Positions 11,353 through 58,468 of a stretch of DNA of 64,000 nt are shown here, piece by piece. Location of the stretch: the IMG/VR virus record IMGVR_UViG_3300005529_000006, positions 1 to 64,000 of that record, one strand, 5' to 3'. Positions within the stretch are counted from its first letter, which is position 1, and the number at the start of each line of letters is the position of its first letter. This DNA comes from a virus. The position numbers and the translations under genes are program-made. The notes below the pieces were generated by a model, which saw only the letters and a list, made by a program, of their open reading frames with translations, was not told the origin of the DNA and ran no database searches.

Positions 11353-11536
11353 GCTTCTTCTCCTTTTTCCAGACCCGACGCAAGATAGTGGGGACAACAA
11401 TACCCCACGAAACTAAAAACAACCCCGCTCCCAAGAACAACTGAGTGTCACTGGGAGCGTCCATCATAGAGAGAGCGATGGTTGTCACTCTCATCATGAG
11501 CAAGAACAACAAAGCCGTAAGTATCGCTTTCTTCAT
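11288..11536 (-). CDS. small membrane protein (NfeD-like partner candidate)
   Basis: Two TM helices; immediately upstream of the SPFH gene, with overlap. Confidence 0.4.
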   Translation of the reverse strand: MKKAILTALLFLLMMRVTTIALSMMDAPSDTQLFLGAGLFLVSWGIVVPTILRRVWKKEKKHEKESVGGSAPVNGRSGVHAD

Positions 11537-19927: not shown

Positions 19928-20401
19928 GTGCCGAGATCTAAGTTCTCTGAGAACATAACTCCTGATTGGTTTCGGGAAGCGGCCCGGTTGATGGCCAGGA
20001 ATGACATCAGCCTCAAGCAAGCCGTGGTCGAACTCCAGCGTGAGTTAGCCCCTGAAGAATGCGAGCGCCTGGCTCGCCGGGATGACTTCAAGCAGATTCT
20101 CCAGCAGGAGAAGAATCGCTACCGCTCTGAAGTCGCCAACAGTCCCGACCGCACCAAAGCCACCAAGATCGGCATTCTCCAACTGGCAGTTGAAAAACTT
20201 CTGGCCGAAGGCGAGTGGGAAAAAGCTGCCAAAATCACCATGGAACAAGCGAAGCTCGAAGGGGAGCTGAACGCTGACTCCAATATCAACATCTTCGCTG
20301 GCCTGACCGCCAAAGATATCGCCTCCGAACGCGAAAAAGTCCTCAAACAGATTGAAGCTGACCGATCCGACCGAGATACTCCAGAAATTCTCCCCAACTG
20401 A
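19928..20401 (+). CDS. putative terminase small subunit
   Basis: First gene of the late operon, immediately upstream of and overlapping the TerL gene; 157 aa, helical and charged. GTG start is uncertain. Confidence 0.4.
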   Translation: MPRSKFSENITPDWFREAARLMARNDISLKQAVVELQRELAPEECERLARRDDFKQILQQEKNRYRSEVANSPDRTKATKIGILQLAVEKLLAEGEWEKAAKITMEQAKLEGELNADSNINIFAGLTAKDIASEREKVLKQIEADRSDRDTPEILPN

Positions 20402-21863
20402 GCGTCTCGCCATCATCAATGCGCTCGAAAAGAAGCGCAAAGATGAACAATTCGCCAAATACTGGACTCCTCAGCCTCAACAAGAGCCGCATTTCGCCCA
20501 GTTCACCTCCAAAACCAAGATTTTCGGCATTCTCGGAGGCAATCGCTCAGGTAAGACAGAAGAAGGGGCTTTTATAAGTGTAGCTTGGGCTCTAGGTAAG
20601 GACTATTTCATAGGAGAACCTGCCTATGAGTGGGTCAAGGACCTTCCTATTCCCGAGCCTCCCAATAACATCTGGGTCGTGGGGCTCGACTTCCCCACAC
20701 TCAGAGATGTTATCTGGCGAGAGAAACTAAGGTTTGGCAGACAGCATCCCCCGATCCTCCCCAAAGATCCCTCGGTCGTCACCAAAGTATCCGATGGTGA
20801 CTACCAGATCTTCTTCGCCAACGGCTCCATTATCACAGGCAAATCGGCTGATTCGGGCCGTGAGAAGTTTCAGGGCGCTTCAGTTGACCTGGTGTGGATC
20901 GACGAGGAGCCTGAGGTTTCAATTTTTGATGAAGCGTATCAGCGAACCGCTGACTGCGCAGGAAAGATCCTACTTACACTCACTCCTCTTACGGACATTT
21001 CCTCGGGCGTTAGGACTCCCTGGGTCTTCGATCTCTACGAAGAGATGAAACAAGGGCGAGACGACATCAAGTTCGTCTCCCTGAATGTTCTAGAGAATCC
21101 CTACGTTCCCGATGACGAGAAAGATAAGCTCGTTAAAAAGTGGACGGGACACTTTGAAGAGAGAGCCAGGTTGTATGGCGAATTCATCCAGCGATCCGGA
21201 CTTGTTTATAACCTCTGGAAACCCTCTGTCCACCTTATCCCACCCCGAAAGATCCCACGCGAATGGCGAAGGATTGTCAGTATTGATCCTGCCGCTACTG
21301 GCACTACTGCTGCTATTGGGGCCGCCATCGAGCCAGGCACGAATAACCTCTACCTCTACCAGGAATATTACGACCGAAACAAGGTTGTCAGTGACCACGC
21401 TCGAAATATTCTTGTGCGTTTCTCGGGAGAACCCGTCGATATTTGGCTCATTGATCCTAAATGGGGAACCCAACGTAATGGCGAGACCCACAAAACTGGG
21501 ATGCAATTGTATCGAGAGAATGGAATTCCAGTCCGACTTGCCGAGGTCGATGAAGATTATGGTCTTAACGCCTCCCGAGAGTATATTGCCGCCACGCTTG
21601 ATCCAAATTCCCGCCACCCCAAAGTCTTCGTTTTCAATTCCCTCAAGAACTTTCGATTCGAGATAGAACATTACGTTTGGGACTTCTTCCAAAAGGGAGA
21701 ACAAAAGGGCCTCTCAAAGGACAAACCTCTCAAGCGTAACGATCACTTGATGAATGCCTTCCAATATCTTTGCGCTTTACGGCCACGCGGACGGAGATCC
21801 TCCGGACTTCCTCTCAACGAAGAGGACAAAAAGATCTACTCCAACCTCAACAGTTACACATAA
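20352..21863 (+). CDS. terL: terminase large subunit
   Basis: ATPase motifs FGILGGNRSGKTEEGAF (Walker A) and VDLVWIDEEPE (Walker B); C-terminal RNase H-like nuclease region (VSIDPAATG); 503 aa. Confidence 0.85.
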   Translation: MKLTDPTEILQKFSPTERLAIINALEKKRKDEQFAKYWTPQPQQEPHFAQFTSKTKIFGILGGNRSGKTEEGAFISVAWALGKDYFIGEPAYEWVKDLPIPEPPNNIWVVGLDFPTLRDVIWREKLRFGRQHPPILPKDPSVVTKVSDGDYQIFFANGSIITGKSADSGREKFQGASVDLVWIDEEPEVSIFDEAYQRTADCAGKILLTLTPLTDISSGVRTPWVFDLYEEMKQGRDDIKFVSLNVLENPYVPDDEKDKLVKKWTGHFEERARLYGEFIQRSGLVYNLWKPSVHLIPPRKIPREWRRIVSIDPAATGTTAAIGAAIEPGTNNLYLYQEYYDRNKVVSDHARNILVRFSGEPVDIWLIDPKWGTQRNGETHKTGMQLYRENGIPVRLAEVDEDYGLNASREYIAATLDPNSRHPKVFVFNSLKNFRFEIEHYVWDFFQKGEQKGLSKDKPLKRNDHLMNAFQYLCALRPRGRRSSGLPLNEEDKKIYSNLNSYT

Positions 21864-25560: not shown

Positions 25561-25875
25561 ATGGCAATCTTTAGTGCGATTTTAACCCCCTCGGACACAA
25601 CCGCTATCAAAGTAGCGGCTCTTGCAACCACCACTAGCTCCTCGGAACAAGCTCTGGGGACGAATGTGGTCTTCGCAATTAACGCCGATCAGGACATCAC
25701 AATTAAGTTTGGAATCGCTGGAATGGCAGCGGCTGCGACCACCGACTTCCGCATCCCCCAGAACCAGACCTTCACCTTCTTCACCGGAAGAAATTTCGAC
25801 CGTATCCGCGTCTTCAACCAGAGCGGCTCCACTGCGGCCAACGTTTACATTCAACCTCTCACTGTCCTTAGGTAA
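25561..25875 (+). CDS. putative virion protein (104 aa)
   Basis: ORF ending at the portal start. Confidence 0.45.
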   Translation: MAIFSAILTPSDTTAIKVAALATTTSSSEQALGTNVVFAINADQDITIKFGIAGMAAAATTDFRIPQNQTFTFFTGRNFDRIRVFNQSGSTAANVYIQPLTVLR

Positions 25876-27986
25876 TGGCGGAATATACAACCCCATCTGT
25901 AGCTCCCATGGTGAGCGTGTCGGACGATCCTAACGCCGACATCACCAATAAGGTCATCGAACATCTGCGCCGGATGAGGTATTTCCGCAAGCAGTATGAC
26001 CAGCGGAGAGCTTATTTCTATCGCCAATACTTGGGCCAGAGGGACCAGCGTTTTTATCCCGACAACATCACCCCCAGGGCAAACACCTTTGTCCCCTATC
26101 CGCTTAGCAACGTAGAGACCATTGTTTCTCGCGTTCTAGACGCTTTCTTCTCTTACGAAGACTGGTTCGAGGCAAAAGGCCGCTCTGCGCAAGACGAACC
26201 ATCTGCGGAGAAGATGCAGGTGGTTTTGTTGTATCTGCTCAAGAAAGGCAAGTTTATTCCTGCCTTCGAGAGCCTGGTCAGAAACATCTGTATCTACGGC
26301 CACGCAGCCATCAAGGTTGATTGGGACTGGGATTACGATTGGGTCACCTATTCCCAACCCATCCCCGCACTCGACGAGAACGGGATGCCGATTATCCAGC
26401 CCGTTCCCGACATGAACACAGGCCAGATCACGATGCAACCTGTGATCCAGGGCTACCAACCTGCCCGCAAACCTGTCCCTCGCGCCTGCCCCAGATTCAT
26501 CCCCATTGATGTTTATGATCTCCTCCTCGATCCGGATGGCGGAATCGTTGCGCATTTAACCGAACGCACCCTGGGCCAGATGCTCCGCGAGCAACAGATG
26601 AGCGTCGAGGCGGCCATGGAAGATCCTTCCAAGAAGCCCCTCTACATGCCCGCAGCGCTTAATCTCCTGGTCCATCGGGTAAGCGAGAACGTCAAGAGTC
26701 CAGATAATCCCCTGGACACGGTTATCCGATTAGCAGAGGTTTGGAATGAATACGATCAGACTCAGACCATTATCACTTACGGAGAGGATGCAGAGGCAAT
26801 CTCTTGGAAAGACCTCCGTGCGTCATATCGAGCTGCGGGTTACTCACCCTATAAGCGAAAAGTTTATGCAGGACAACCCCTCCTTCTCTACCACGGGGAA
26901 ATTCCTTTTATGCATAAACGTGCCCCCATCCTCGCCACTTCGTTCATAAAGATTCCTAACGAAGCTTTTGGCCTGGGGGCCATTGAGATCATCTCCGACC
27001 TAACCGAGTCCATGAACAAGTTCGTAAACATGATTACGGACAACTGGAACCTCGGCATCAATCGCCGCTTTGCCTTCGACGTGAACGCCGATATCGACCA
27101 CGAAGCACTCAACAGTTTCAACGTTCCCGGAGGCAAGGTAGCAGTCAACGGAGATCCCTCGAAGGTGATTCTCCCTCTGCCCTTCTTTACTCCCCAAGCA
27201 GGGGACTACCAAATCCTTGAACTCTTCAAGGGAATGGTCGAACAAACTTCAGGTGTCTCGGACTTCTATAACAAAGCCGTGGGATCGCCCACCGGCAATC
27301 GTACAGCGACTGGCATCAACTCAGTAATGCAGGAGAGCAACTTCCGCTTCAAGATGTTCATCCGGAACCTCGAAGTGGATGTCCTCCAACCCCTCCTCAA
27401 CATGTGCGCCTCGATGGTGCAGCAGTATGTGAAAGATCCCATCGAAGTGCAAATAACCGGGGAGATGCCTCAAATTAAAAAGTGGGTCGCACTTATGCCG
27501 GAGGAGCTTGTAGGCTCCATGGACTTCGACATGGTGGCTGCGAACTACGCCACCAACCGCATGATTAAACAGCGCAATATCATGGCCCTGTTTAACCTGG
27601 CCGCCGCGAGTCCGATCTTCGCGCCCTTCGTCAACCCCTACGAAACTCTCAAAGAGGTCTACAAGGCTTTCGAAATCCGCAATATCAACAAGCTTCTCTT
27701 CACCCCGCCCCAGGTGCAGATGATGCAGCTTGCACAACAGAAGCAACAGATCAACATGATGCTCCTGGAAAACATGATGAACGTCGAGGGCAAAGCACGT
27801 TTACAGCAATCGAAGCCGCAACCTGGCGGCAAGGGTCCTGATGGCCGTCCCCGACGACCGATGCAGCCCGAGGGCAAGATGCCAGGTGCTGGCCTCATGA
27901 GTCCAATCCTGGACCTCGCTCAATCCATGGGCGCTAACGGGCTCGGCCTGGAAGGTATGGGTCAAGTTCCTGGAGCTGAAGGATGA
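25875..27986 (+). CDS. putative portal protein
   Basis: 703 aa; first large gene after terminase in the morphogenesis block; Gln/Met/Pro-rich C-terminal tail. No motif-level confirmation. Confidence 0.55.
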   Translation: MAEYTTPSVAPMVSVSDDPNADITNKVIEHLRRMRYFRKQYDQRRAYFYRQYLGQRDQRFYPDNITPRANTFVPYPLSNVETIVSRVLDAFFSYEDWFEAKGRSAQDEPSAEKMQVVLLYLLKKGKFIPAFESLVRNICIYGHAAIKVDWDWDYDWVTYSQPIPALDENGMPIIQPVPDMNTGQITMQPVIQGYQPARKPVPRACPRFIPIDVYDLLLDPDGGIVAHLTERTLGQMLREQQMSVEAAMEDPSKKPLYMPAALNLLVHRVSENVKSPDNPLDTVIRLAEVWNEYDQTQTIITYGEDAEAISWKDLRASYRAAGYSPYKRKVYAGQPLLLYHGEIPFMHKRAPILATSFIKIPNEAFGLGAIEIISDLTESMNKFVNMITDNWNLGINRRFAFDVNADIDHEALNSFNVPGGKVAVNGDPSKVILPLPFFTPQAGDYQILELFKGMVEQTSGVSDFYNKAVGSPTGNRTATGINSVMQESNFRFKMFIRNLEVDVLQPLLNMCASMVQQYVKDPIEVQITGEMPQIKKWVALMPEELVGSMDFDMVAANYATNRMIKQRNIMALFNLAAASPIFAPFVNPYETLKEVYKAFEIRNINKLLFTPPQVQMMQLAQQKQQINMMLLENMMNVEGKARLQQSKPQPGGKGPDGRPRRPMQPEGKMPGAGLMSPILDLAQSMGANGLGLEGMGQVPGAEG

Positions 27987-31027: not shown

Positions 31028-32050
31028 ATGTTTAAGAAATTCCTGTCAGTTATCACTGACCTGTTCCTCTTCGTCCTGGGTTTTGGGGCTGATGTCGTCA
31101 CCGTAACTGCGGGGTCGGCAGGTAATGCAGGTAGCACAGCCGCCGAGCTGATTACCTACATGTCTGCCCGTCTCCTAGAAGTGGCCGAGTTCAATACGAT
31201 TCTCGACCAGTTTGGAGACAAGCATCCACTTCCTAGCAACTCCTCGAAGACGATTCGTTTCGTCCGTGAAGAGAAGCTGAGTGTAGCTTCGACCCCAACC
31301 CAGTTGTCGGAAGGCATTCCGCCCGATGCCGTTGGCATCACCCTCAACCAAATTGAAGCAACGATTGAGCAATATGGCTCCGTAGTTCGTCTGTCGGACC
31401 TGGCTGAGATCACCGCCCGCCACAACGTGGTAGAGCGCACGATCTACATCCTGGGCCTCCAGGCGGCTGAAACCTATGACCAGTTGATCTTCAACGTGCT
31501 CGACGCCGCGACCAATAACTATCGCCCCAACAACCGTGCGGGTGATACCTCGTTGGCTGGCTCTGACCTGGTTAGCTATAACGACCTGGTTGAACTGGAT
31601 GCTCTGCTCCAGGACCAAGGCGCTCGCCCCTTTGAAGGTGGAGAATACGTTTTCGTATGTCCCCCGCAGGTCTACTCCGGCCTGCTCCGTGATCCGGACT
31701 TCAAGGCGTCTAACCAGCTTCGCGCTCCGGAGAAAATCTGGCGTGGCGAAGTCGCCTCGCTTGGTGGGTTCCGAGTTATTCGCTCGAACTCCCCCTCGTT
31801 CGCTGCCACCTCTCAGGCTGGTGCCGGACAAGCCAGCAAGGTGTTCAGCTCGTTCGGCATTGCGCGGTTCGCATATCAGATTACTGATTTGCAGAACCTG
31901 CGTGTCTATGTGGTTGCCCCTGGCGGCCAGATCGACCCCCTCCAGCAATCCCGCAAGATCGGTTGGAAGTTCGCTTTCAAATCGGTCATCACGAACCAGA
32001 ACTGGATTCGTCGAGTGCGATCTGCTGGTGCGAACAGCGTCACTAACTAA
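31028..32050 (+). CDS. major capsid protein (lambda gpE / HK97-fold type)
   Basis: 340 aa, after the scaffold gene, with a strong stem-loop just downstream. Pattern DLVELDALLQDQGARPFEGGEYVFVCPPQVYSGLL resembles gpE-like capsid proteins (recollection). Confidence 0.6.
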   Translation: MFKKFLSVITDLFLFVLGFGADVVTVTAGSAGNAGSTAAELITYMSARLLEVAEFNTILDQFGDKHPLPSNSSKTIRFVREEKLSVASTPTQLSEGIPPDAVGITLNQIEATIEQYGSVVRLSDLAEITARHNVVERTIYILGLQAAETYDQLIFNVLDAATNNYRPNNRAGDTSLAGSDLVSYNDLVELDALLQDQGARPFEGGEYVFVCPPQVYSGLLRDPDFKASNQLRAPEKIWRGEVASLGGFRVIRSNSPSFAATSQAGAGQASKVFSSFGIARFAYQITDLQNLRVYVVAPGGQIDPLQQSRKIGWKFAFKSVITNQNWIRRVRSAGANSVTN

Positions 32051-32306: not shown

Positions 32307-32621
32307 ATGGCCAACAAAACAATGGCGGATCTCTATAAGACCGACAAGGCGACTTGGGAATATATCTCTGTTCCTGAAGAGAACGTCCTTGGTGAGGTGC
32401 ACGCTGATATCGTCATCAACACCGAACGTTTTCGTGCAGGACAGACCTACCTGGTTCCCAAGCTAGTAGCGGAAACCGTCCGTGAACGCCTGAAGACCTA
32501 TCAGAGATCGTGTATGCGCATCATGTCCCCTAAGAAGGACACAGCCGCAGAACAGGCAGTCGCAGTTGGCAGTGCCAACGCAACTGTCCCGGTTGTAGCA
32601 GATGCCAGCTTGATCCAATGA
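32307..32621 (+). CDS. hypothetical protein (104 aa)
   Basis: ORF. Confidence 0.45.
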   Translation: MANKTMADLYKTDKATWEYISVPEENVLGEVHADIVINTERFRAGQTYLVPKLVAETVRERLKTYQRSCMRIMSPKKDTAAEQAVAVGSANATVPVVADASLIQ

Positions 32622-32995
32622 CTTGGGACAACTGGAAAGATGCTCTCCTAGCCCTAACCCTCTGGCGAGAAGCCAGAGGGGAAGGCAGGCGAGGTATGGA
32701 AGCCGTAGCGTGCGTTATTCGTAACCGCGCTGTTGGTTTGGACCAGATTGCTGCGATCTCTAAGAAGTGGCAGTTCTCCAGCCTCACGGCTCCCGGAGAT
32801 GCCATGCTCGTCAAATGGCCCCTCCCAGGCGACGTGGCTTTTGAAACAGCCATGGACATTGTATCGAACCTGGCGCTCCTTCCAGATATCACCAACGGTG
32901 CGACTCACTACTTTAATCCCAATGTTGTCCGTCCACCTTGGGCGGCAAGCATGACCAAAGTAGCCTCCATCGGTCGTCACGATTTCTATAAATGA
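32618..32995 (+). CDS. SleB-like cell-wall hydrolase (Hydrolase_2), putative endolysin
   Basis: LTLWREARGEGRRGMEAVACVIRNRA ... QFS ... ATHYFNP signature. Confidence 0.7.
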   Translation: MTWDNWKDALLALTLWREARGEGRRGMEAVACVIRNRAVGLDQIAAISKKWQFSSLTAPGDAMLVKWPLPGDVAFETAMDIVSNLALLPDITNGATHYFNPNVVRPPWAASMTKVASIGRHDFYK

Positions 32996-33597
32996 CCCCC
33001 CAGATTTTTCTGGTTCGCCACGCCAAAACCCTTCTCAACAACGCATCGTCCGAGGCTATTCGTGGACACTCGGATATTCCCATTTCTGGTGAAGGCGAAG
33101 AGGCACTTAAGCAAACCGCTGAATTCCTCAAAGGTCATTCCATTAAACGCATCTTGGCCAGCCCCTTGCAACGCGCCATGATGACCGCCTTATTTATTGC
33201 GGACAAAATAGGGGCAAAGGTAACTCCCAACTCCGGTCTCACTCCTTGGGATCTCGGCAACCTAACAGGCAAACGCATAGAAGAAGTTGCCCCCAAGATG
33301 AACTATTACCAGGACTACCCCGACATAAAAGTTCCTGACGGCGAAAGCTATAGAGACTTTTATGATCGCTGGTCGCAAGCCCTGGACCGGATGTTGGCCT
33401 ATGCAGAGAAGCACCCCGACGAAATTCTCACGGGCGTAGTGCACTCGCGCAATCTTCTTTCTCTTCCTTCCATCATTGGCAAGCGACCTATGGGCGAAGT
33501 CCCAGTCAAAGGCGGTCCTCCTCCCGAGAGCGTAACTCGCGTCTACCTCGATGATGACACCTGGAAATACGAAACCATTTTTGAATTAAAGCAATGA
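32992..33597 (+). CDS. histidine phosphatase (phosphoglycerate-mutase-like) family protein
   Basis: IFLVRHAKT...RGHSDIPISGEGE...ASPLQRAMMTA; ATGA overlaps on both sides. Confidence 0.65.
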   Translation: MTPQIFLVRHAKTLLNNASSEAIRGHSDIPISGEGEEALKQTAEFLKGHSIKRILASPLQRAMMTALFIADKIGAKVTPNSGLTPWDLGNLTGKRIEEVAPKMNYYQDYPDIKVPDGESYRDFYDRWSQALDRMLAYAEKHPDEILTGVVHSRNLLSLPSIIGKRPMGEVPVKGGPPPESVTRVYLDDDTWKYETIFELKQ

Positions 33598-34109
33598 ACT
33601 TCCTAAAAAAGATTCTCCCCTGGATTGGAGCAGCTGCTACGGGCAACGTCCCGGCGCTTGTGTCCATGGCCGCGAACGCGGTTAGCGGAGCCCTCGGTAA
33701 CAAGGTTGACTCCAGCGTCGATTCCATTGTCTCCGCAGTGCAAGGCGCAACACCCGAACAGCTCGTAGCCTTAAAGCAAGCAGAGTTGGATTTTCAAGCC
33801 AAGATGCAAGCTATGGGCTTCTCTCACGAAGAGGAGCTTGCTCAGATTGAGGTCGCAGATCGCGACTCGGCTCGGGCCCGTGAAATCAGCGTTCGTGACT
33901 TCATGCCCAAGGTTCTCGGTGGGGGAGTGGTCGCGGGTTTCATTGTCGCTACGTTCCTCATCCTCACAGGTCACGGCAAAGCCGATAGCGTGATGGCCGG
34001 AACCCTTATTGGTTATCTCTCCGCAAAGGCAGAGCTTGTCCTCGCCTACTACTTCGGTAGCTCCGCTGGATCTGACCGCAAGACAGAACTCCTCGCCCAA
34101 GGTAAGTAA
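33594..34109 (+). CDS. holin-like membrane protein (resembles 3-TM GTA-type holins)
   Basis: Gly-rich N-terminal helix, ADRDSARARE motif, C-terminal TM segments; position after the lysin. Assignment from recollection. Confidence 0.4.
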   Translation: MNFLKKILPWIGAAATGNVPALVSMAANAVSGALGNKVDSSVDSIVSAVQGATPEQLVALKQAELDFQAKMQAMGFSHEEELAQIEVADRDSARAREISVRDFMPKVLGGGVVAGFIVATFLILTGHGKADSVMAGTLIGYLSAKAELVLAYYFGSSAGSDRKTELLAQGK

Positions 34110-37100
34110 TGAAGAAATACATTCTCCTGTTATTTTTGCTTGTCCCACTATTTGCTTGGGGACAAGCCAGTCGTGTGGATGGTCAGGTACTGGGGCCGAA
34201 CGGTCAGCCCGTTCATTTCCCCCTGGTCCGCGTTTGTACGGATACTTCTAACCTTGGTTCTGGGACGGTCTATTGCGGAACCACAAGCGGGGGACTAAAA
34301 ACCCTATTCACCGACATAACTGCTCAGGTGCAGTGTACCGGGTCCAACGGTTGTGCCAATCCGATCACTGGCGACTATAACGGCAACTACCATTTTTATT
34401 CCGCCCCTGGTAAAGCCATCGTTGAAGTTATTGTCAACGGTGTAGTTCAGGGGGATACCCCTGACACCATCATCCCCTGTGATCCCGATTTCAATTGCGG
34501 AACAGGCACTGGAGGTTCGTCCAGTATTCCCTTGGGTTCGCAAGGGCAATTCATTCAGTACACCGGAGTCGGAGATCTCACTAATCAAATCGGTCCCTCC
34601 AACATGCGGGATCTCACCGGCACTCTCACAATCCCAGATGTCTCGAATGTGGACTTTGGGGGACCGGGGGTAGGCAGTGCGCAGTTTAGTATGCGCGGGC
34701 TTAACTCTGGATTGGTTGTGGTTCGCGTGCAGGACGCGGCAGGTAATTACACCCTAACTTTACCAAACGGTCCTGGGCTAGCTAACCAAGTCCTAGCCAC
34801 AGATGGTGCAGGCAATCTCTCCTTTGTGACCCCTGCCGCAAGCGCTGTAGGTGCAGGCGCAGCCGGACAGGTAAGCGTCTACAACGGTCCTAATAGCGTA
34901 GGTGGTGACGCTCTCTTTACAGACTCAGGCAACACCCTCGCCTATACAGGCACCACCTTCACCCTCGGTAATGCTACCGCTGGAGTATTTAATACCTTTG
35001 ATGGTTTTAGTATAAGCACTGGGACAGGCATTAAGGATACAATCTCCAGCGGCACTAGCACCTCCGCTGGCCTTACATCCGGCAGGCACCTTATCATTCA
35101 AGCCCACGCCGGAACATCCACAGGCTTTGGAGGAGACCTATATCTCCAAGCTGTAGGTTCTACTTTCTCTGGGAACCAATCCTTCTCTCCGGGATGGGTC
35201 TATGTTCTGGGTGGAGTAAATACTGGCTCTAGCGGTGGCGGCATCGCCTTAATCCCCGGTGTGGGGAACACCACTCCTGCTTACGTCACAATAGGTTGTA
35301 ACGCCTCCAACGGCAGCCCTTGCGGCTCTCCGGGCAATCCTTCCAACCCCACAATCACTGGCAAGGTGGCGTTCGTAGGCAAGAATGGCGGCTCGGTCTT
35401 CTTGACCGTGCCGGACAACGTGGGTGGAGCTGTTACCTTAACGCTCCCTACCTCCACGGGTACGAATGGCCAAGTGATCTGCACGGACGGCACGGGAGTG
35501 CTGAGTTTCTGTAACCAAACTGGCGGAGGCGGGAGCGTATCTGGAAGCGGTACTACCAACACTCTTCCTAAGTTTACCGCTGCTACGGTCCTCGGAAACT
35601 CCGGCATCACGGATAACGGAACAACCGTCAACACAGCGGAGAACCTCTCGGTTGCATCCTCGACCGCTGCTACAGGTATTTCAAACGTCAACTCTCCGTT
35701 CTTTCAGGTCGCAGGCAACTCTTGGAACGGCGCGTCTGTCGCAGATGTCTGGAGCTTCCAGAACGTCGCTGGCGCAGGCACAAACCCCACCCAAACGCTG
35801 ACGATTACTCATAGCGGCTCAAGTGGTGCAGCCTCGATCTCGGCTGCCTTCCCCTTCACTATTGCGGGCTTAACCAGCACAGGCAACGTCAACTTAGGTG
35901 GAGCCTCTTCGGTAATCAACTCTACGCTCGGGAACGGCGCTCCCAACAACGCAACTTGCATTTCCACTGGACAGGAATACTTCCAGTTGGACGGGACCGC
36001 AGGGCAAGAGAAGTGGTATTGCAAGGGCAACGTCTGGACTCAGCAACTCAACTCAGGTGCGGCTGGAGCTAACGTCCAGTTAAGCAACCTCTCGGGTACG
36101 ACCGCGATTCCAGTCGCCCTTTTGCCAAACGCGGCTGGCACCTTGGCCTTCGGTAGCAACGCGCTCCCTTGGACCAGCGTGTTCATCGGTGGTGCAGCCA
36201 CAAACAACATCCAGCTTACGGGCACCGCAACGAGTGCTAAGGTAGCCACTCTCCCAGACAACACAGGCACGATTGCCGAATTGAATCTGGCGCAGACGTG
36301 GACTGCCAATCAAACATTTCCGGTTGTAATCTCTTCAGCCGCCAATCCAGCCAATGCCGGGTTTCTCCGCTTCTCGTCTGGAGATGCCCTCAGCTTCCGC
36401 AACAATGCGAACTCTGCCAATGTCAACGGCCTGAGCAAAGATACCTCGGATATTGTCCAAGTAGGCGATACGGCGGGTATCAAGCTAGCGGGTCCCCTCT
36501 CTAGCGTGGGCGCTGGCTCCGCACTGACGATTCGACCCACTCTGCAAACTGTCAATGGCACGGGTGGGGATTTGACTGTCGCCGCAGGTAATACCTCCGG
36601 CACAGGGGCCAACGGCAACCTTCACCTTTTGGCGGGCTCCGGCGGTTCTGGTACTCCCGGCGCAATTGACATCGGAACTTCCCCGTTCGCTGTCACTCTT
36701 CCAAACGACACTAGCAACGGAACTCTGCAATTCAATCTTGTCAGTGTTACCTCCACTGGCAACGCGATTCAAACCCCTGCTGGCTCCAATGCAGGCGTAG
36801 TTGGTATTGCGATCAGCGGCGCAGGCACTTCCGGTAGCGCAACCGTTGTCCAGCTCGGCCAGGTCAATTGCGTATTCGATCAGGCTGCCACACCTGGAAA
36901 CTATGTTGGCATCTCCGTTAGCAATAATGGGCAGTGCCATGATATCGGTGCAGTTCCAACTATCAACACTCAAGCCGTTGGAACAGTCTTGAGTTTGGTA
37001 TCGGGCACGACCTACAAGGTCCTCGTTGATCTCGGCTCGGCTCCTGGGGCGAACAGCAACAATACTGTCATCACTAACCCCGGCAGTACACAGCAAATCC

Positions 37101-39094
37101 AAGCTACCGCGCCTACCGCTGTTTCTCTTGTTGTAAAGCAACCTACCAGCGGGTCGGTTGATATTTTCCAAGTCCTGCTAGCCAACGGCACCAAAGCTTT
37201 CTACGTAGACAGCACGGGTGTTGTTCACTTCGGAACCGGGACTTCTTCGGTCACGTCTTCGGCGTTCATTAGTTCCGCTGCTAACCCTGCGGCTACGGGA
37301 GTTTTCCGTGCGGCATCTTCGGACGTTGGATTGGCTTTCCGCAACAACGCAAACACTGGCGATGTCACGATTGCCAAGAACAACTCCGATGTGTTGACCT
37401 TCAATGGCACTCCCGGCTTCGCGGTTACACAAGCCGGAGCAAGTTTCGGAGACACTGTATCCTTCACAACCCCCGCAGCAAACCGAACTATCACCTTTGC
37501 TGACCCCGGTGGGAATGACAGCGTGGCTTATCTCGCTGCGACCCAGACCTTCACGGGTAAAACTATTGGCACGGGTGGCTTGCTATTCGCTACCCAAACC
37601 GCTCCCGGCAACCCCGCTGGCGGCAACATCCTCCTGTATGCAGATAGCGGCACTGGCAACCTCGCTTGCTTAACCTCTGCTGGCGCAAACTGCTTGCCCT
37701 CTGCTGGAGGCGGCGGCACCGTAGCACTTAGCGCGATCACGGCTGCTACCAGTACACCCGCTGCTATTAACAACGCTAACTTCCCTCAGAAATGGAACTG
37801 GCAGCTTACGACCAACGGCACCAGTGGATTCACCTTTGGCGAGTTCGCAGCATCGACTGCCACTAGTTCTAACCTAGTAAACATCAAGACTCTCGCCTCT
37901 TCCACGTTAAACCCGTTGACCATTACTGCACTGGGCAACGTAAACGGACTTCAAGTAAACAACATCGGTGATCTTACCTTCTTGGGTACGGGCATGTTGG
38001 ATACTGGAACATCCTCCCAGACAGGTAGTGAGTGTGCCAATGAAGGTGTTACAGGTACAACCAACGGCCTCGTCGCCAAACTTAACACTTCCAACCAATG
38101 CATCAAGGCCACTACGTCTGATGTAGCTGGCGTGGAAGGTATCGTCGTCAAGGGCGGCGGCACAAGTGGTAACGCTGTCATCGCTACCTCCGGCGTGGTC
38201 AGTTGCACGTTTTCCAATACCGCAGTGGTAGGAGATTACGTTGGTGTCTCGACTACTACGGGTGGTGACTGCTTAGACTTAGGCTCTCAGCCTACCGCAG
38301 GCACACAGGTCTTAGGACGGGCGTTGACTGCTGGTGCAGGTAGCCAATCTGTCCTCGTCTACGGGCGCGGGATGCTTGCAATCACAGGCGTACCCAACCG
38401 CGTCACTACAGCCTTCGCTGGTGGTGTTCTTACTCTGTCTCTCCCTCAGGATATCGCCACCACATCAATCGTCCAGTTCGGCGGAGTTAAGAGCGGCACT
38501 TCTGGTATTTCCGGCTCCAGCGGCACCAACTCTTACGATGTCCGTTGCGGCATTGATGGCACTGCTTCTCAGGTCTGTGTGCTCACGGTTCGTGGCGCAG
38601 ACTTCTCCGGCACTGGCAACAACAACGGCGGTGCCTTCGTAGCGAGAGGCGGAAACACTGGCTCCAACGGTTCAGGTGTTGCCGGGAACGCTGACTTCCA
38701 AGCTGGACAAGACACAGGAAGCGGCGGAAACAACGGTCACATTCAGATCGACGGCGCTTATGTCAAAGGCGCTACCTACACTACTGGAAACACTCAATGC
38801 TTCACTGCTGACAATACCGTTCAGGATTGCGGCACTAGCGCGGTGAACTTCGTAGGTGTGGCTGTAAGCTCCAACGGCAGCTCCGCCATAGTCGCTCTCT
38901 CCGGCACTCAAGTCCTCGTCAACTATGACGCAACCGTTAGCCCCTCAGCGGGATGGTTCGCGTGCTCAAGCGCCAGCGTAGCTGGCAAAGCCACTGCCCA
39001 ATCAGGAGCTTGCTCCGCAGGCAGAACCATTGGAGTCATCGAAAAAGGTGGAACGAATGTTACGAGCGGTAACGTTACTCTGGCTCATTTCTAA
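34109..39094 (+). CDS. giant fiber-like protein (1661 aa) with N-terminal signal peptide
   Basis: MKKYILLLFLLVPLFAWG|Q; Gly/Thr/Ser/Ala-rich with internal ~300-aa repeats (SSAANPANAGFLRFSSGDALSFRNNANSANV / SSAANPAATGVFRAASSDVGLAFRNNANTGDV). Confidence 0.6.
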   Translation: MKKYILLLFLLVPLFAWGQASRVDGQVLGPNGQPVHFPLVRVCTDTSNLGSGTVYCGTTSGGLKTLFTDITAQVQCTGSNGCANPITGDYNGNYHFYSAPGKAIVEVIVNGVVQGDTPDTIIPCDPDFNCGTGTGGSSSIPLGSQGQFIQYTGVGDLTNQIGPSNMRDLTGTLTIPDVSNVDFGGPGVGSAQFSMRGLNSGLVVVRVQDAAGNYTLTLPNGPGLANQVLATDGAGNLSFVTPAASAVGAGAAGQVSVYNGPNSVGGDALFTDSGNTLAYTGTTFTLGNATAGVFNTFDGFSISTGTGIKDTISSGTSTSAGLTSGRHLIIQAHAGTSTGFGGDLYLQAVGSTFSGNQSFSPGWVYVLGGVNTGSSGGGIALIPGVGNTTPAYVTIGCNASNGSPCGSPGNPSNPTITGKVAFVGKNGGSVFLTVPDNVGGAVTLTLPTSTGTNGQVICTDGTGVLSFCNQTGGGGSVSGSGTTNTLPKFTAATVLGNSGITDNGTTVNTAENLSVASSTAATGISNVNSPFFQVAGNSWNGASVADVWSFQNVAGAGTNPTQTLTITHSGSSGAASISAAFPFTIAGLTSTGNVNLGGASSVINSTLGNGAPNNATCISTGQEYFQLDGTAGQEKWYCKGNVWTQQLNSGAAGANVQLSNLSGTTAIPVALLPNAAGTLAFGSNALPWTSVFIGGAATNNIQLTGTATSAKVATLPDNTGTIAELNLAQTWTANQTFPVVISSAANPANAGFLRFSSGDALSFRNNANSANVNGLSKDTSDIVQVGDTAGIKLAGPLSSVGAGSALTIRPTLQTVNGTGGDLTVAAGNTSGTGANGNLHLLAGSGGSGTPGAIDIGTSPFAVTLPNDTSNGTLQFNLVSVTSTGNAIQTPAGSNAGVVGIAISGAGTSGSATVVQLGQVNCVFDQAATPGNYVGISVSNNGQCHDIGAVPTINTQAVGTVLSLVSGTTYKVLVDLGSAPGANSNNTVITNPGSTQQIQATAPTAVSLVVKQPTSGSVDIFQVLLANGTKAFYVDSTGVVHFGTGTSSVTSSAFISSAANPAATGVFRAASSDVGLAFRNNANTGDVTIAKNNSDVLTFNGTPGFAVTQAGASFGDTVSFTTPAANRTITFADPGGNDSVAYLAATQTFTGKTIGTGGLLFATQTAPGNPAGGNILLYADSGTGNLACLTSAGANCLPSAGGGGTVALSAITAATSTPAAINNANFPQKWNWQLTTNGTSGFTFGEFAASTATSSNLVNIKTLASSTLNPLTITALGNVNGLQVNNIGDLTFLGTGMLDTGTSSQTGSECANEGVTGTTNGLVAKLNTSNQCIKATTSDVAGVEGIVVKGGGTSGNAVIATSGVVSCTFSNTAVVGDYVGVSTTTGGDCLDLGSQPTAGTQVLGRALTAGAGSQSVLVYGRGMLAITGVPNRVTTAFAGGVLTLSLPQDIATTSIVQFGGVKSGTSGISGSSGTNSYDVRCGIDGTASQVCVLTVRGADFSGTGNNNGGAFVARGGNTGSNGSGVAGNADFQAGQDTGSGGNNGHIQIDGAYVKGATYTTGNTQCFTADNTVQDCGTSAVNFVGVAVSSNGSSAIVALSGTQVLVNYDATVSPSAGWFACSSASVAGKATAQSGACSAGRTIGVIEKGGTNVTSGNVTLAHF

Positions 39095-42062
39095 TGCCCT
39101 AGCGTTTGGACAGGGCATTACAGCCACTGGCAACGCCACTGCATCAGGCACACAGACAGTCTTTCAAACACAGGTAGCTTCTGCACCGCCTCCTCTGGCG
39201 TTTACGACTGTCTGCCCGTTACCTACTGCCAACCAGAATCAGACCTATGCGACCAACCTGAACGCTACGGGGGGCCTTGCCCCCTATGCATTTAGCATAG
39301 CGTCAGGAACACTCCCAACAGGTTTGAGCTTGGCTGCAAGCGGAGCTATCAGCGGTACGCCTAGCGGGACGGGGACATCGGTGGTGAACTATCTCGTCAC
39401 TGATTCCAGCACTCCAGTTCCCCAAACGGCGCAACTTAATAGCTGCTCGATCACTGTCAGCCCTGCTCCTCCCCCTCCCCTTAGTGTCAATACCTCCCCT
39501 CCTCCCCCTGCGGGTTTTACAGGGGTAGCGTATAGCTACACCTTCAGCGCGACAGGTGGAACTCCGCCCTATACCAACTGGGCCATTATCAGCGGCAATC
39601 TGCCGAATGGTCTTAGCCTGAATCCAAGTACCGGAGCTGTATCCGGTACGCCAACTACCGCCCAGACTTCCTCGTTCACTGCACAAGTGATGGATTCAAT
39701 TGGAGCCACGGCCAATGCTCCCTTCAGCATCACCATCAACCAAGTGACTCCATCTGGAGGGACAGCCGACGAGCCACACCTTTGGGCCGACCCTCATGAA
39801 GTGGATTCGTCTATCGCAAGCCCCGCTGTCACGCGCTATTGGGGTGCTACTTCCACTGGCTGCCCAACCAACACAGGCAGTGTATGTAACTACGTTGGTG
39901 GCAACTTCACTACGTGGCAGAACATAGAAAATGATTATTGCGCAGACCTAGACAGGGACTGGAAGGTTGTAGTTACCCACCAGCTTCTAGTCTCAGGTCA
40001 TGGCCCTGTTAATCTATGTGCCAAGACAGGAGCCACGCACTTCATCTCCTACATCTCGGATAGCCCCAACCCCTCCAAGGTAACCGTTTGCTCGGGAGGG
40101 ATTAACGACTCTAACCAAGTTGGTCTAGACCCCGGCTCGCGTAACTACCAATGCGCCAACGGCACATGGCTCTCCCATATGTGGACTGCTGAATGCACAG
40201 GCTACTCTGGCAGCAAAGGTTGTGTCATCAGCGCCAATGCAGTAGACGGCAACGGCAAAGGCCCACATCATCATGCGTTCTTTGATGCGGAAATCCGGCC
40301 TAACACATCCATCGGCACGGCAATCCAAGTCTTCATGATCGACCAAGGGGCGGCCTTAAACTCTGCTGCCTCAAATGGCGAAGCCGAGCATATGTGGTAT
40401 TTCCGTAACTACTGGCACGGCACCATTCCCGACAATCCTGTATTTCCAAATCCCGGAACCTACATCAACATCTCAAACTTCATTCGTATGGAATGTAAGT
40501 TCTGCGGAATCATGGATAGTTACATGGACCAAATAGGGTGCTCTCAAGGCTGTGAGAGCCACATCATACTATCCGTAAGCGCCCACGGACCCGAGCGCAT
40601 CGAGCACAACTGGGTCGAAGGTTCCAGTGTCCCTCTCTTCCAAGGAGGCGGGTTGCCCGCCATCGCGGGGACGGTAACCAGTGACGTTGAAATTCGACGT
40701 AACAGATTCACGCGCTCCACTACGTGGATTTCAGCCACGCCTTGTTCTACTGGAAACTTCTTGGACGTAAAAGGAATCGTGGAGCTTAAAGAAGGGCAGC
40801 GAATCCTTCTTGATGGCAACATCTTCGAGAACAACTGCGGTGGTGGTCAGGAAGGTCAGACCATGACCCTCACGCCGCGTGTCGGTTCTGGTCCGTCAAA
40901 CTTCGATGGCTACACTGAGCGGCTGGACGACATTCTTGTAAGCAACAGCATCATGCGCCACTCGGCGACATTCGTTCAGACGGATTCTACATCTGGCGGA
41001 GTTGGAAATGGCAACGGCGTCGGTAACCCTGGTCGTAGGTGGACGTTCATTGACATCCTAGGCTATGACTTGGGAACGGTTTATGGAACGACCACAGCTT
41101 ACTTCTTCAAGAACGTCCAGAGCCGCCACAGTTGGACGGGCTGCATAGCTACCCGTAACGCGGCTGGCACGTCGTCAACCATAGACTGCACAGCCAGTCC
41201 CAGTACTGCCACGGGGCAACTTCAAACTGACATCCTTCCGGGTGATGCGGTATGGGTCAATACTTGCGCTAGCGGCGGGCCAAATCCAGACCCAAGCCCT
41301 ACCAGCTTTCAGGTAGGCAATGGTTCTTTGGGTCCGGCCGCAACCAGCGTCACCAACTTAACTGTGACCTATCCCAACCCCGGAGCCGCGAGCAAGACGG
41401 CTTCGTGTACCTTGGTGGACCCGCAAGGATTCGTGGATGGTCTTAGCGCACGCCACATCACACTCGTCGCTGTCCCCCAGTCCATTAAAGGCGCAGGAAA
41501 CTGGACAGCGCCAAGCTACGCGTCGACGGGCAACATATCCTTCAACAAAAACACCACATACCAAGACGACATCTTCGCCGTCAATGGCAGCTACGGTGGA
41601 TGGGGAGATAGTCTCTCAGCTCCTGGACATGAAGGCACAATCACCGAGAACTACCAAGACACTGCCACTTTAGTTGGCAATCACTTGCTGTTCTCCATGT
41701 CTCGCCCGCTGAGTCAGTACACAGAGTACGGCGGTCCCAACTCTGGGGCAAAGCCTCCTGTAACTATCTGGTCCCCTGCTAACATTAGCTGCGCAGGTGC
41801 CTCGGCTGACTCCACCTGCTTCGGCTTCACCAACATGCGGAGCGGGGCAGCCTTCAACGTGGCGGACTCCGACTACCACGGGTACGCCCTCCACAGCTCC
41901 AGCCTATATAAAGCTGGCGGTTCTCGCCAGGCTTCTGACGGCACTGACATGGGCGCTCGCATTCCTAACATCGACAACGCCCTGACTCGTCCCCAATACG
42001 TCTGTACCAACTCCTCGAAATGCACCCAGAACGGTACAGTCCATGGACCTTACGTTTACTAA
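39030..42062 (+). CDS. tailspike-like protein: Ig-like (He_PIG-type) repeats plus a predicted beta-helix
   Basis: LPTGLSLAASGAISGTPSG and LPNGLSLNPSTGAVSGTPTT repeats. The N-terminus (MLRAVTLLWLISNALAFG|QG) is encoded in the frame overlapping the end of the previous gene, so the start is uncertain. Confidence 0.5.
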   Translation: MESSKKVERMLRAVTLLWLISNALAFGQGITATGNATASGTQTVFQTQVASAPPPLAFTTVCPLPTANQNQTYATNLNATGGLAPYAFSIASGTLPTGLSLAASGAISGTPSGTGTSVVNYLVTDSSTPVPQTAQLNSCSITVSPAPPPPLSVNTSPPPPAGFTGVAYSYTFSATGGTPPYTNWAIISGNLPNGLSLNPSTGAVSGTPTTAQTSSFTAQVMDSIGATANAPFSITINQVTPSGGTADEPHLWADPHEVDSSIASPAVTRYWGATSTGCPTNTGSVCNYVGGNFTTWQNIENDYCADLDRDWKVVVTHQLLVSGHGPVNLCAKTGATHFISYISDSPNPSKVTVCSGGINDSNQVGLDPGSRNYQCANGTWLSHMWTAECTGYSGSKGCVISANAVDGNGKGPHHHAFFDAEIRPNTSIGTAIQVFMIDQGAALNSAASNGEAEHMWYFRNYWHGTIPDNPVFPNPGTYINISNFIRMECKFCGIMDSYMDQIGCSQGCESHIILSVSAHGPERIEHNWVEGSSVPLFQGGGLPAIAGTVTSDVEIRRNRFTRSTTWISATPCSTGNFLDVKGIVELKEGQRILLDGNIFENNCGGGQEGQTMTLTPRVGSGPSNFDGYTERLDDILVSNSIMRHSATFVQTDSTSGGVGNGNGVGNPGRRWTFIDILGYDLGTVYGTTTAYFFKNVQSRHSWTGCIATRNAAGTSSTIDCTASPSTATGQLQTDILPGDAVWVNTCASGGPNPDPSPTSFQVGNGSLGPAATSVTNLTVTYPNPGAASKTASCTLVDPQGFVDGLSARHITLVAVPQSIKGAGNWTAPSYASTGNISFNKNTTYQDDIFAVNGSYGGWGDSLSAPGHEGTITENYQDTATLVGNHLLFSMSRPLSQYTEYGGPNSGAKPPVTIWSPANISCAGASADSTCFGFTNMRSGAAFNVADSDYHGYALHSSSLYKAGGSRQASDGTDMGARIPNIDNALTRPQYVCTNSSKCTQNGTVHGPYVY

Positions 42063-43259
42063 ATGCCTGTAATTCAAGGAAACAGCAGTCCTCTCTATAC
42101 CACGTCCACGACTGTTCAGAACATTCTGGACGCGGTGTCGCAAGACATTCGTTCGCAGTTGTCCTCGCAGGTTAATACCGGTGGGCAGCCGATTCTGCTT
42201 GACTATCTGAATCGTACCCAACTGGAGATGCTGCGGGCGAGCAGGTGGCAGTTCTTGCTCTCTGCTCCACAACGTTTCATTACACAATTGGGAGTAACCG
42301 ATTATTGGCTTGGTACTCCTGGGCAAGCTCCCCCTGGAGCCTATGACACTCTCCTTAACCTGGCGGATCTTCGTACCATAAAGCCCGGAACGGTTTACGA
42401 CCGAACGAACAATGTGCCTCTGGGCCGAGTCGATGAGGCTCCCCTAGTAGCAAAGCTGGAGTATCCCGATGCCAGCTTTCGGATGTTCCGCCCTTCCGAT
42501 TGGCGACAGAGCCCTACAAGTCCACAGGTCCTGAACATCTACCCGGCCCCGGATAACCAGGCAATCTATAAGCCCCAACCCATGCCTGCAATCTGTGGAA
42601 CCATGGCAGGAGGCGCACTAGGCTCCAGGATCTACTACGTCACTCTGACCTACGTGGACTCGTTAAACAACGAATCTAGCTCTCCACAAGTGAGCAAGAT
42701 CTTTGTCCCTGCGGGCAGCGTATTGGTGGTCAATCCTCCAAATCCCCCGATTATTCAGGGCACCACTGGAATCCGCTACGACCGTTACAACGTGTACGTA
42801 AGCACCAACAACACTCAGTTCCAGCAGCACAAGCAGAACAACTCTCCGATCTCATACCTCCAGGCGTGGGTTGAACCCACCAGTGGTATCACCACGAACG
42901 GAGCACTGGTTCCTTCGACCAACAATGTCGAGCCCATTGACGGGTACATCATCGAGTTTCGCTACTTCAAGCAACGCGTTCAACTCAACAGTAATACTGA
43001 TCCCTCTACCGTCATCCAGATTCCGGATGACTACAAAGATGTGGTGGTATCTGGAGTCAACGCCAGGGCCTATCAGTACCTTCGTCAAGGACAAGAAGCC
43101 ATGCGCGAGTTCCAACTTTTTCGAGATGGCCTAACCCAAATGGTCCGAGACATGAACCTGCACCCGCGTGGACAGGAATACCTTAAGCCCGACGGGTCCT
43201 CGATTGGTGGCACTCTCCCCGCAGTCGAAACTATCGACCTCTCTGTACTGAGTAACTAA
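42063..43259 (+). CDS. putative tail/adaptor protein (398 aa)
   Basis: ORF in the tail block. Confidence 0.5.
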   Translation: MPVIQGNSSPLYTTSTTVQNILDAVSQDIRSQLSSQVNTGGQPILLDYLNRTQLEMLRASRWQFLLSAPQRFITQLGVTDYWLGTPGQAPPGAYDTLLNLADLRTIKPGTVYDRTNNVPLGRVDEAPLVAKLEYPDASFRMFRPSDWRQSPTSPQVLNIYPAPDNQAIYKPQPMPAICGTMAGGALGSRIYYVTLTYVDSLNNESSSPQVSKIFVPAGSVLVVNPPNPPIIQGTTGIRYDRYNVYVSTNNTQFQQHKQNNSPISYLQAWVEPTSGITTNGALVPSTNNVEPIDGYIIEFRYFKQRVQLNSNTDPSTVIQIPDDYKDVVVSGVNARAYQYLRQGQEAMREFQLFRDGLTQMVRDMNLHPRGQEYLKPDGSSIGGTLPAVETIDLSVLSN

Positions 43260-58086: not shown

Positions 58087-58468
58087 TTTCTCCTGGCCCG
58101 TTGATTCCGGTACCATCATACAAGACACCTGTTGCTCTGTCATCTAGCTCCGGATGTGATACGCTATACTCCAATAGACTAAGGAGGCCCCAACACGCAT
58201 GAGAAAGATGTGGCAATCCAGACTCTTCATCCAGTTCTTCTCCGGACCACCACTTCCAGAGGTGCCGCATGACTGCCGCGAATATGCGACTCCATTTCAA
58301 ACCCTTGCGCCAGTTATTGTCCTCATACTTCCCTGCGCCGAACGTGTACACTCGGCCTAGTTCCCACAACGGATAGGCTGGTATGAGGTCCAGCCTATTC
58401 TTCCCTCCATCGTCCTTCGCGCCTTCCTTAAGCTTACTTGTTTGCTGCAATTTCTCTTGCGAACTCAT
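57881..58468 (-). CDS. dATP/dGTP diphosphohydrolase-domain protein
   Basis: DDGGKNRLDLIP...FGAGKYEDNNWRKGLKWSRIFAAVMRHLWKWWSGEELDEESGLPHLSHA, the hallmark of the phage dGTP-diphosphohydrolase N-domain (recollection). Start trimmed to Met-42; about 200 nt overlap with the integrase start is unresolved. Confidence 0.6.
   Translation of the reverse strand: MSSQEKLQQTSKLKEGAKDDGGKNRLDLIPAYPLWELGRVYTFGAGKYEDNNWRKGLKWSRIFAAVMRHLWKWWSGEELDEESGLPHLSHACWGLLSLLEYSVSHPELDDRATGVLYDGTGINGPGENGSEKVSERKVVSQGKQEEGVGRQVEGGCQAFVWGTYDFCWSCGKRLNFCDCESSQVEGIGDSTGTPY

Follow-up and report, generated by a model that had tools for sequence, protein, structure and literature searches.

What does a histidine phosphatase do in the middle of a phage lysis cassette? 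The question is raised by positions 1-64,000 of the IMG/VR record IMGVR_UViG_3300005529_000006, from an uncultured soil phage (hereafter the window, meaning the whole 64,000-nucleotide stretch analysed), in which a phosphatase gene lies between the genes of a cell-wall hydrolase and a small membrane protein. With a probability of roughly 45%, we take the locus to be a genuine endolysin/holin-like cassette together with a conserved accessory phosphatase whose substrate is a soluble anionic phosphoester, 3'-phosphoadenosine 5'-phosphate (PAP) or 3'-phosphoadenosine 5'-phosphosulfate (PAPS) being the best candidate. Taken as a specific substrate, PAP or PAPS is the best single proposal and, in absolute terms, still a doubtful one. 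The open reading frames (ORFs) concerned are:

32307-32621, + strand: conserved ORF of 104 amino acids (aa), no Pfam or PHROG family match
32618-32995, + strand: Hydrolase_2 endolysin candidate, 125 aa
32992-33597, + strand: His_Phos_1 phosphatase, 201 aa
33594-34109, + strand: lysis-associated membrane protein, 171 aa, phrog_1544 family, holin-like

The hydrolase, phosphatase and membrane-protein ORFs of the original prediction, made from the window's letters, were all recovered at these positions. Stop and start codons overlap as ATGA at 32618, 32992 and 33594, leaving four translationally coupled genes on the + strand; this pattern had been predicted for every junction, but the last one, with a 1661-aa ORF downstream, is TAATG with a 1-nt overlap. 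For comparison, relatives were drawn from nine metagenome contigs carrying close phosphatases and 61 IMG/VR loci recruited with the capsid protein, and all ORFs were clustered; a JGI metagenome scan added four loci only (single loci are given below by L numbers). Since homologues of the hydrolase, phosphatase and membrane-protein genes are numerous in syntenic phage contigs, the three cassette genes are real. Nearly all relatives, even those without lysis genes at this place, have the 104-aa ORF immediately 5' of the endolysin slot, and the ORF is probably structural and outside the lysis function.

The hydrolase matched Pfam Hydrolase_2 (PF07486; 45 bits, cut-off 27) and the PHROG endolysin family phrog_938. 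It is a single-domain protein of 13.9 kDa and pI 8.9, with a nonhydrophobic N-terminus and no export signal, and its WREARGE motif, which we take to be the catalytic Glu motif of the Hydrolase_2 family, was invariant in six relatives, in agreement with the SleB-like hydrolase lacking a signal peptide that had been proposed. SleB proper was judged by equivalog score, an N-terminal peptidoglycan-binding domain and a signal peptide; against TIGR02869 the protein scored 35.9 bits (cut-off 236.5), with only the C-terminal catalytic part aligning. As a small murein hydrolase beside a membrane lysis protein, in a slot swapped among hydrolase families, it falls within the endolysin class, murein hydrolysis being its predicted activity. 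No second murein hydrolase was recognised among the window proteins scanned.

Across relatives, the capsid-adaptor block kept a constant order while its content varied, running from capsid through a small ORF, the ~104-aa ORF, a hydrolase slot, the phosphatase and a membrane-protein slot to the adaptor. The hydrolase slot held Hydrolase_2, SLT (with an invariant EQES motif), GH108 plus PG_binding_3, Tlde1/YkuD or unassigned small ORFs, and the membrane-protein slot held phrog_1544-type proteins, GTA_holin_3TM proteins (PF11351; sister phages L010, L102, L114 and others), other small transmembrane proteins, or nothing. Because the two slots are each filled by unrelated families, a pattern typical of lysis genes, we regard the region as a lysis cassette.

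The 171-aa protein matched phrog_1544 (E 2e-19), a PHROG family of more than 1,100 clusters whose function is not annotated. It gave no significant Pfam match, and no Pfam domain was precomputed on any of its best 120 homologues. Its hydropathy profile shows two hydrophobic segments, a strong one over residues 103-130 and a weaker one over 132-151; the N-terminus is rich in Gly and Ala, and in the family alignment the central helical region bears an invariant D-R-x-x-A-R motif. The protein is the only membrane protein in the capsid-adaptor block of the window. Outside this phage group, phrog_1544 homologues lay directly 3' of a small wall hydrolase in all five unrelated phages or prophages inspected:

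Rhodoferax phage P26218: GH108
Manatee Spring podovirus: lysozyme
Cupriavidus prophage: GH108
metagenome contig: glucosaminidase
another metagenome contig: GH19 enzyme

The phrog_1544 genes of these outside contexts are L001 6989-7519, L002 6986-7519, L150 3001-3525, L151 3001-3552 and L153 3001-3528. Small, with at least one transmembrane domain and located beside an endolysin, the 171-aa protein fits the holin class, with hole formation as a prediction. It did not match the GTA_holin_3TM profile, which two of seven family members matched below threshold (best E 0.0025), and hhalign against the PF11351 protein of L010 returned a nonsignificant probability of 0.7%; on these scores membership of PF11351 is not established. 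What had been called a holin-like protein thus stands as a lysis-associated membrane protein, without reaching any named holin family by profile threshold, and phrog_1544 proteins may be holins or another, undescribed lysis factor. No other holin was recognised among the window proteins scanned.

The location of these genes inside the structural operon, between capsid and adaptor, would also suit three virion-associated entry proteins, whereby the hydrolase cuts murein, the membrane protein serves as a DNA channel and the phosphatase is injected. We consider this very improbable: small, free-standing, single-domain hydrolases swapped among families are typical of endolysins, the outside phrog_1544 homologues sit beside endolysins at late-operon ends or in prophage lysis regions and not among ejection proteins, GTA_holin_3TM fills the same slot in relatives, and the window proteins scanned contained no other endolysin.

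The phosphatase matched Pfam His_Phos_1 (PF00300) over residues 5-195 with 101.4 bits (cut-off 21.7). It is a branch 1 enzyme of 22.6 kDa without a signal peptide, transmembrane segment or hydrophobic N-terminus. R9-H10, T13, N16, R61 and H151 were invariant in all full-length sequences among 29 close relatives, one of which is N-terminally truncated, and were also kept in 13 chromosomal homologues. The pocket residues were kept in all but two of 32 distinct phage copies, one being N-terminally truncated (L120) and the other having Ser at 151 (L119). The PGAM-type assignment, which the original prediction had made to depend on alignment of the catalytic RH and H residues, is borne out by this conservation. 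At the position of the canonical proton-donor Glu (E83 in PhoE, E82 in PspA), the window protein has Pro85 in all four printed profile-to-PDB alignments and also in the phmmer alignments to PspA. Pro85 was invariant in the close subfamily, and P, S, D or A occurred there across the wider phage family; phosphatase activity may use another acid or none. The subfamily is further marked by the invariant motifs L-x-P-W-x-L-G, H-S-R-N and V-P-V-K-G-G-P (170-176 in the window protein) and by invariant basic residues at R24, R126, R153 and K173.

An AlphaFold2 (AF2) model of the phosphatase (pLDDT 93.5) showed the alpha/beta PGAM fold, and its nearest Foldseek matches (E 3e-15, TM score 0.75-0.82, 18-23% identity) were GpgP, PspA, PhoE, cofactor-dependent phosphoglycerate mutases (dPGMs) and a riboflavin-pathway HFP. 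The nearest solved structures are small-molecule phosphatases, including the mycobacterial glucosyl-3-phosphoglycerate phosphatase (GpgP). None of the NCBIfam equivalogs compared (CobC, GpmB, PspA, SixA, RNase H/acid phosphatase) was reached; the best was TIGR03162 CobC with 77 bits (cut-off 162.9), and the SixA model scored 28 bits, below its 74.5-bit cut-off. On its residues and fold, the enzyme is catalytically plausible, and it represents a distinct, Glu-less subfamily. Two other accounts of the gene were rejected. A decayed pseudo-enzyme is at odds with the invariant pocket residues, the Glu being absent in the whole subfamily, chromosomal genes included. A recent moron is at odds with GC and GC3 values matching those of neighbouring genes, together with the presence of the gene across relatives whose capsids are 64-89% identical to that of the window. 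One copy (L007 1174-1989) has an N-terminal Cys-rich extension of ~70 aa (CxxC ... C ... CC), possibly a zinc-binding module.

The four additional basic residues fit a polyanionic ligand, the fold family includes CobC, the best NCBIfam match although below cut-off, and the gene is conserved throughout the phage group at several late-operon positions. These features would also suit a counter-defence or nucleic-acid/nucleotide enzyme acting on the 3'-phosphates of damaged RNA ends or on a phosphorylated nucleotide of the signalling or alarmone type and encoded in the late operon only incidentally. We hold this to be rather improbable, as no ligase, kinase or other repair partner is encoded nearby, late instead of early placement would be odd for a counter-defence gene, and no defence-system homology turned up, although none was searched for specifically.

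A different ligand is suggested by the cellular relatives. A profile search recovered hundreds of chromosomal phosphatase homologues with 33-40% identity, and all those aligned carried the subfamily motifs, including VPVKGGP and Pro85-Trp86. When one genome per species was counted (65 loci), 62 loci belonged to Acidobacteriota, two to Verrucomicrobiota and one to Vulcanimicrobiota; the Acidobacteriota carriers were Terriglobia, namely Acidobacteriaceae, Ca. Sulfotelmatobacter and Bryobacterales. At about 40 of the 65 loci, a Sulfotransfer_3 gene was located 60-300 nt 3' of the phosphatase on the same strand (overlapping it in L023), often with a second, Sulfotransfer_1 gene next in the operon, once fused to a GT2 glycosyltransferase. 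Some sulfotransferase was encoded within three genes of the phosphatase at ~55 of the 65, and in L022 CysNC- and CysD-like PAPS-synthesis genes lie 5' of it. The operon is represented as follows:

L019-L088, Terriglobia chromosomes: His_Phos_1 plus Sulfotransfer_3 (plus Sulfotransfer_1), for example L019 7001-8838, L023 7001-8691 and L022 5036-8782

From these sulfotransferase operons we infer that the subfamily serves PAPS-dependent sulfation. Judged by gene neighbourhood, its simplest role would be removal of the inhibitory by-product PAP, and the many invariant basic residues would fit a bis-phosphorylated ligand. The chromosomal operon may thus encode a non-CysQ PAP phosphatase. Known PAP phosphatases, of the CysQ/IMPase and NrnA types, have other folds, and a PAP phosphatase of the present family would be an analogue, not a member, of these types. 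We found no paper in the literature that pairs a histidine phosphatase with sulfotransferases or PAP.

The same relatives bear on the idea that the enzyme is a protein phosphatase whose action on the endolysin, the membrane protein or a host regulator times lysis. SixA and PGAM5 are His_Phos_1 protein phosphatases, the SixA model gave its sub-cut-off match, and the window gene is translationally coupled to both partners. However, a kinase is missing, the same phosphatase accompanies endolysins and membrane proteins of varying families, and the cellular relatives pair with sulfotransferases and not with signalling proteins. We give this reading hardly any credence. Regulation of the lysin or holin, one of the roles originally suggested, likewise found no support, the gene lying away from the endolysin in about a third of related phages.

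How closely the phosphatase is tied to lysis was assessed from its placement. Its 46 close clusters (44-100% identity) are all metagenomic, several on 65-67-kb contigs. A wall hydrolase was located directly 5' of the phosphatase in at least 17 of 32 distinct copies, often with overlapping stop and start codons, and belonged to Hydrolase_2 in eight, Tlde1/YkuD in four, SLT in three or four and GH108 in two. About 10 of the 32 copies were found elsewhere in the late operon, away from the endolysin, and some relatives had no phosphatase. By position, six or seven copies had the capsid gene on one side and the 104-aa ORF on the other, a single gene away from the hydrolase; three lay after the portal gene and one before the scaffold gene. 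L125/L126 encode an SLT protein, a GTA-type holin and then the adaptor, and L144 encodes Hydrolase_2, a 66-aa ORF and then a GTA-type holin, in each case without the phosphatase. When PhoE and PspA were used to root a neighbour-joining tree, the copies at each displaced position grouped into one clade, whereas the lysis-slot position was spread over several; the latter is therefore probably ancestral, which is only suggestive in a tree without support values. The chromosomal clade was nested within the phage diversity, beside the subclade of the window. The phosphatase was missing from all five unrelated cassettes with the same membrane-protein family, and a literature search found no paper on a histidine phosphatase in a phage lysis cassette, consistent with the earlier remark that its presence there is unusual.

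This placement lends some weight to a role at the envelope. The phosphatase could be a lysis effector that leaves the cytoplasm with the hydrolase through membrane lesions and, in place of a spanin, dephosphorylates an envelope component, thereby weakening the outer layers. Examples of such a target would be a phosphorylated glycopolymer, or lipid A or core carrying phosphates bridged by divalent cations. Its position directly 3' of endolysins of four hydrolase families, often with coupling, the suggested ancestry of that position, a presumably diderm host for which no spanin was recognised, and the precedents of LysB and LysZ, accessory lysis factors for other envelope layers, all favour such an effector. 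Yet the protein has no export signal, its nearest structures and cellular relatives are cytoplasmic small-molecule enzymes, the latter in sulfotransferase operons, L125/L126 and L144 do with hydrolase and holin alone, and the ~10 displaced copies are remote from the endolysin. Overall, we regard the envelope effector as unlikely. More specifically, a new enzymatic lysis factor that strips phosphates from the outer envelope of Acidobacteriota (lipopolysaccharide (LPS), lipid A, or a phosphorylated or sulfated glycopolymer), so doing the job of the spanins of Proteobacteria phages, seems improbable. The wall, teichoic-acid or LPS-linked substrate of the original prediction gained no support from a cytoplasmic-type enzyme with small-molecule structural neighbours and relatives in sulfotransferase operons.

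In the search for spanins, which was not exhaustive, none of the cassette ORFs showed a lipobox, Cys is absent from the 171-aa protein, and PHROG scans of other small membrane ORFs were empty. Five relatives (L124, L137, L141, L143 and L146) have no phosphatase in the sequenced stretch. Downstream of their ~104-aa ORF they encode a ~200-aa protein in which a long coiled coil separates an N-terminal from a C-terminal transmembrane segment, and after it usually a ~92-aa transmembrane protein. The ~200-aa protein looks spanin-like, in a sample too small for a claim of mutual exclusion with the phosphatase.

A soluble substrate is favoured because the phosphatase has no export signal and its structural and chromosomal relatives are cytoplasmic small-molecule enzymes, and also because it is dispensable to the hydrolase/holin pair in some relatives and not always beside the hydrolase. 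A genuine lysis cassette with an accessory phosphatase would then work as follows. Through the overlapping stop and start codons, ribosomes would move on from the 104-aa ORF to the hydrolase, phosphatase and membrane-protein genes. The cytoplasmic SleB-type hydrolase would reach murein only once the inner membrane is breached, and the 171-aa protein most likely makes that breach, a holin-like function. In the phosphatase, the nucleophile His10 would take up the phosphate, which R9, N16, R61 and H151 would surround. As a conserved late enzyme of the cytoplasm, it would cleave a phosphomonoester that is soluble and strongly anionic, for which the 3'-phosphate of PAP or PAPS is the best candidate, and would ride in a plastic endolysin/holin slot without attacking the envelope.

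Several points weigh against this account. On the side of the cassette, the 171-aa protein reaches the threshold of no named holin family, the outside phrog_1544 cassettes have a separate small ORF with one transmembrane segment 5' of the endolysin, and neither the cassette nor the other window proteins scanned yielded a spanin-like gene, leaving an outer-membrane step unaccounted for. On the side of the enzyme, absence of the canonical general-acid Glu leaves phosphatase activity a prediction, no sulfotransferase or PAPS gene was found among the 30 window proteins scanned, and phage and cellular enzymes that are only 33-39% identical provide a weak basis for transferring a substrate. Finally, at least 17 of 32 copies adjoin a hydrolase whatever its family, often coupled to it, which makes a functional tie to lysis possible, and the phosphatase tree is a neighbour-joining one without support values. 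The phosphatase may have a direct role in lysis.

The wider genome is that of a temperate podovirus. An identical phosphatase sequence occurs on a 67,277-bp metagenome contig, and the window is thus most of a genome of ~67 kb. Its main landmarks are:

20352-21863: large terminase
25875-27986: SU10/P22-type portal
31028-32050, + strand: major capsid protein (Phage_capsid_4 and phrog_1357, E 3e-41), the 5' border of the variable block
34109-39094, + strand: 1661-aa ORF with a signal-peptide-like N-terminus, no Pfam or PHROG match
39030-42062, + strand: 1010-aa ORF with a signal-peptide-like N-terminus and He_PIG Ig domains (PF05345, E 6e-17)
42063-43259, + strand: SU10-type head-tail adaptor, from PF24175 and synteny, directly 3' of the cassette in relatives
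55390-56259, + strand: tyrosine integrase 1
56890-58143, - strand: tyrosine integrase 2

The capsid protein was 57-92% identical across the 61 IMG/VR loci. In the cultured-phage collection its matches did not exceed ~30% identity, from which we conclude that there is no cultured relative, and the phosphatase matched only generic PGAM-like genes there (26-28% identity). The host is probably a member of the Acidobacteriota (Terriglobia); a phage-only profile search of 185,579 species genomes found no prophage copy of the phosphatase, so the host phylum is taken only from the taxonomy of its cellular homologues. The - strand carries replication genes, among them one for a family A DNA polymerase, and encodes an ECF-type sigma factor (5551-6078). 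The structural module ends with two different tyrosine integrase genes, on opposite strands and separated by ~630 bp. Also encoded, all on the - strand, are an SPFH/Band-7 protein with a lipobox (phrog_200 'lipoprotein'; 10474-11400), an NT5C-like 5'-nucleotidase (58434-59021) and a PD-(D/E)XK nuclease-endonuclease VII fusion (1694-2806). A scan for promoters and terminators over 29.5-43.5 kb returned fewer sites than shuffled controls and was uninformative. Unlike the intact capsid gene of the window, those of L124, L136, L137, L140 and L142-L146 are in two or three pieces; the interrupting ORF (e.g., L140 7148-7684) encodes ~160-310 aa with a LAGLIDADG-like motif, LAGLILGDGF, and no Pfam match, which suggests a homing endonuclease in an intron or intein.

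The cassette had been described as running straight into a secreted 1661-aa protein and as coupled into the fiber genes. The TAATG junction and the signal-peptide-like start of that protein (MKKYILLLFLLVPLFAWGQ) agree with this description, but the arrangement is an accident of this genome. Neither the 1661-aa nor the 1010-aa ORF was found at this position in any relative, where the adaptor follows the cassette, and the comparison places both as a window-specific insertion between membrane protein and adaptor, outside the cassette. Against the fibres of relatives, the 1661-aa ORF gave only two local matches of 40-50 residues. Signal-peptide proteins of 256-284 aa occupy the slot of the giant ORFs in L008 and L014. 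Sec-type signal-like starts on giant ORFs inside a structural operon are a peculiarity, exported proteins being odd as virion parts.

Lysis of diderms outside the Proteobacteria is poorly understood, and the phages of Acidobacteriota have barely been studied. An intact phosphatase kept beside the endolysin would point either to a late metabolic need, possibly for PAPS or sulfation, or to a new envelope-directed lysis step, and both ideas are directly testable with one recombinant protein. The phosphatase-sulfotransferase operon of Terriglobia also suggests a non-CysQ route for PAP removal. Holin-endolysin logic and the histidine-phosphatase fold are already known, whereas a histidine phosphatase as conserved third lysis-block gene throughout an uncultured podovirus lineage, the Glu-less subfamily and its sulfotransferase operon in Terriglobia appear to be undescribed.

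Among known systems, the cassette resembles the lambda S/R type in that a murein hydrolase without an export signal is encoded beside a small membrane protein and both slots are subject to non-orthologous replacement. It differs in the interposed non-murein enzyme, in having no recognised spanin, in lying between the capsid and adaptor genes and in a membrane protein that belongs to no named holin family. The mycobacteriophage LysB esterase is an accessory lysis factor for another envelope layer. The same is true of the LysZ membrane protein of corynephages and mycobacteriophages (bioRxiv 10.1101/2025.06.24.661397). Like these, the phosphatase is a third gene conserved in a lysis cassette and specific to the phages of one host group; unlike them, it has another fold, is not always in the cassette and has no support for action on the envelope. 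The membrane protein shares its size, layout and C-terminal hydrophobic segments with the PF11351 holins, which occupy the same slot in sister phages and include TeaA, for which the role of holin in Vibrio phage ICP1 has been identified (PMC7182436), whereas its own family matches PF11351 only below threshold. PAPS reductase has been reported as an auxiliary metabolic gene in Acidobacteriota-linked viral contigs (PMC11924767). The phosphatase is similar to such sulfur/PAPS genes in that the host phylum has it too and its cellular relatives connect it with enzymes that use PAPS, but its own link to PAP or PAPS comes from cellular gene neighbourhoods only. As an enzyme, it shares with PhoE/YhfR, PspA and GpgP (Rv2419c) the fold (TM score ~0.8), the RH motif, the second Arg, the second His and a length of ~200 aa, and is set apart from them by 18-23% identity, Pro in place of Glu and the extra PW-x-LG, HSRN and VPVKGGP motifs.

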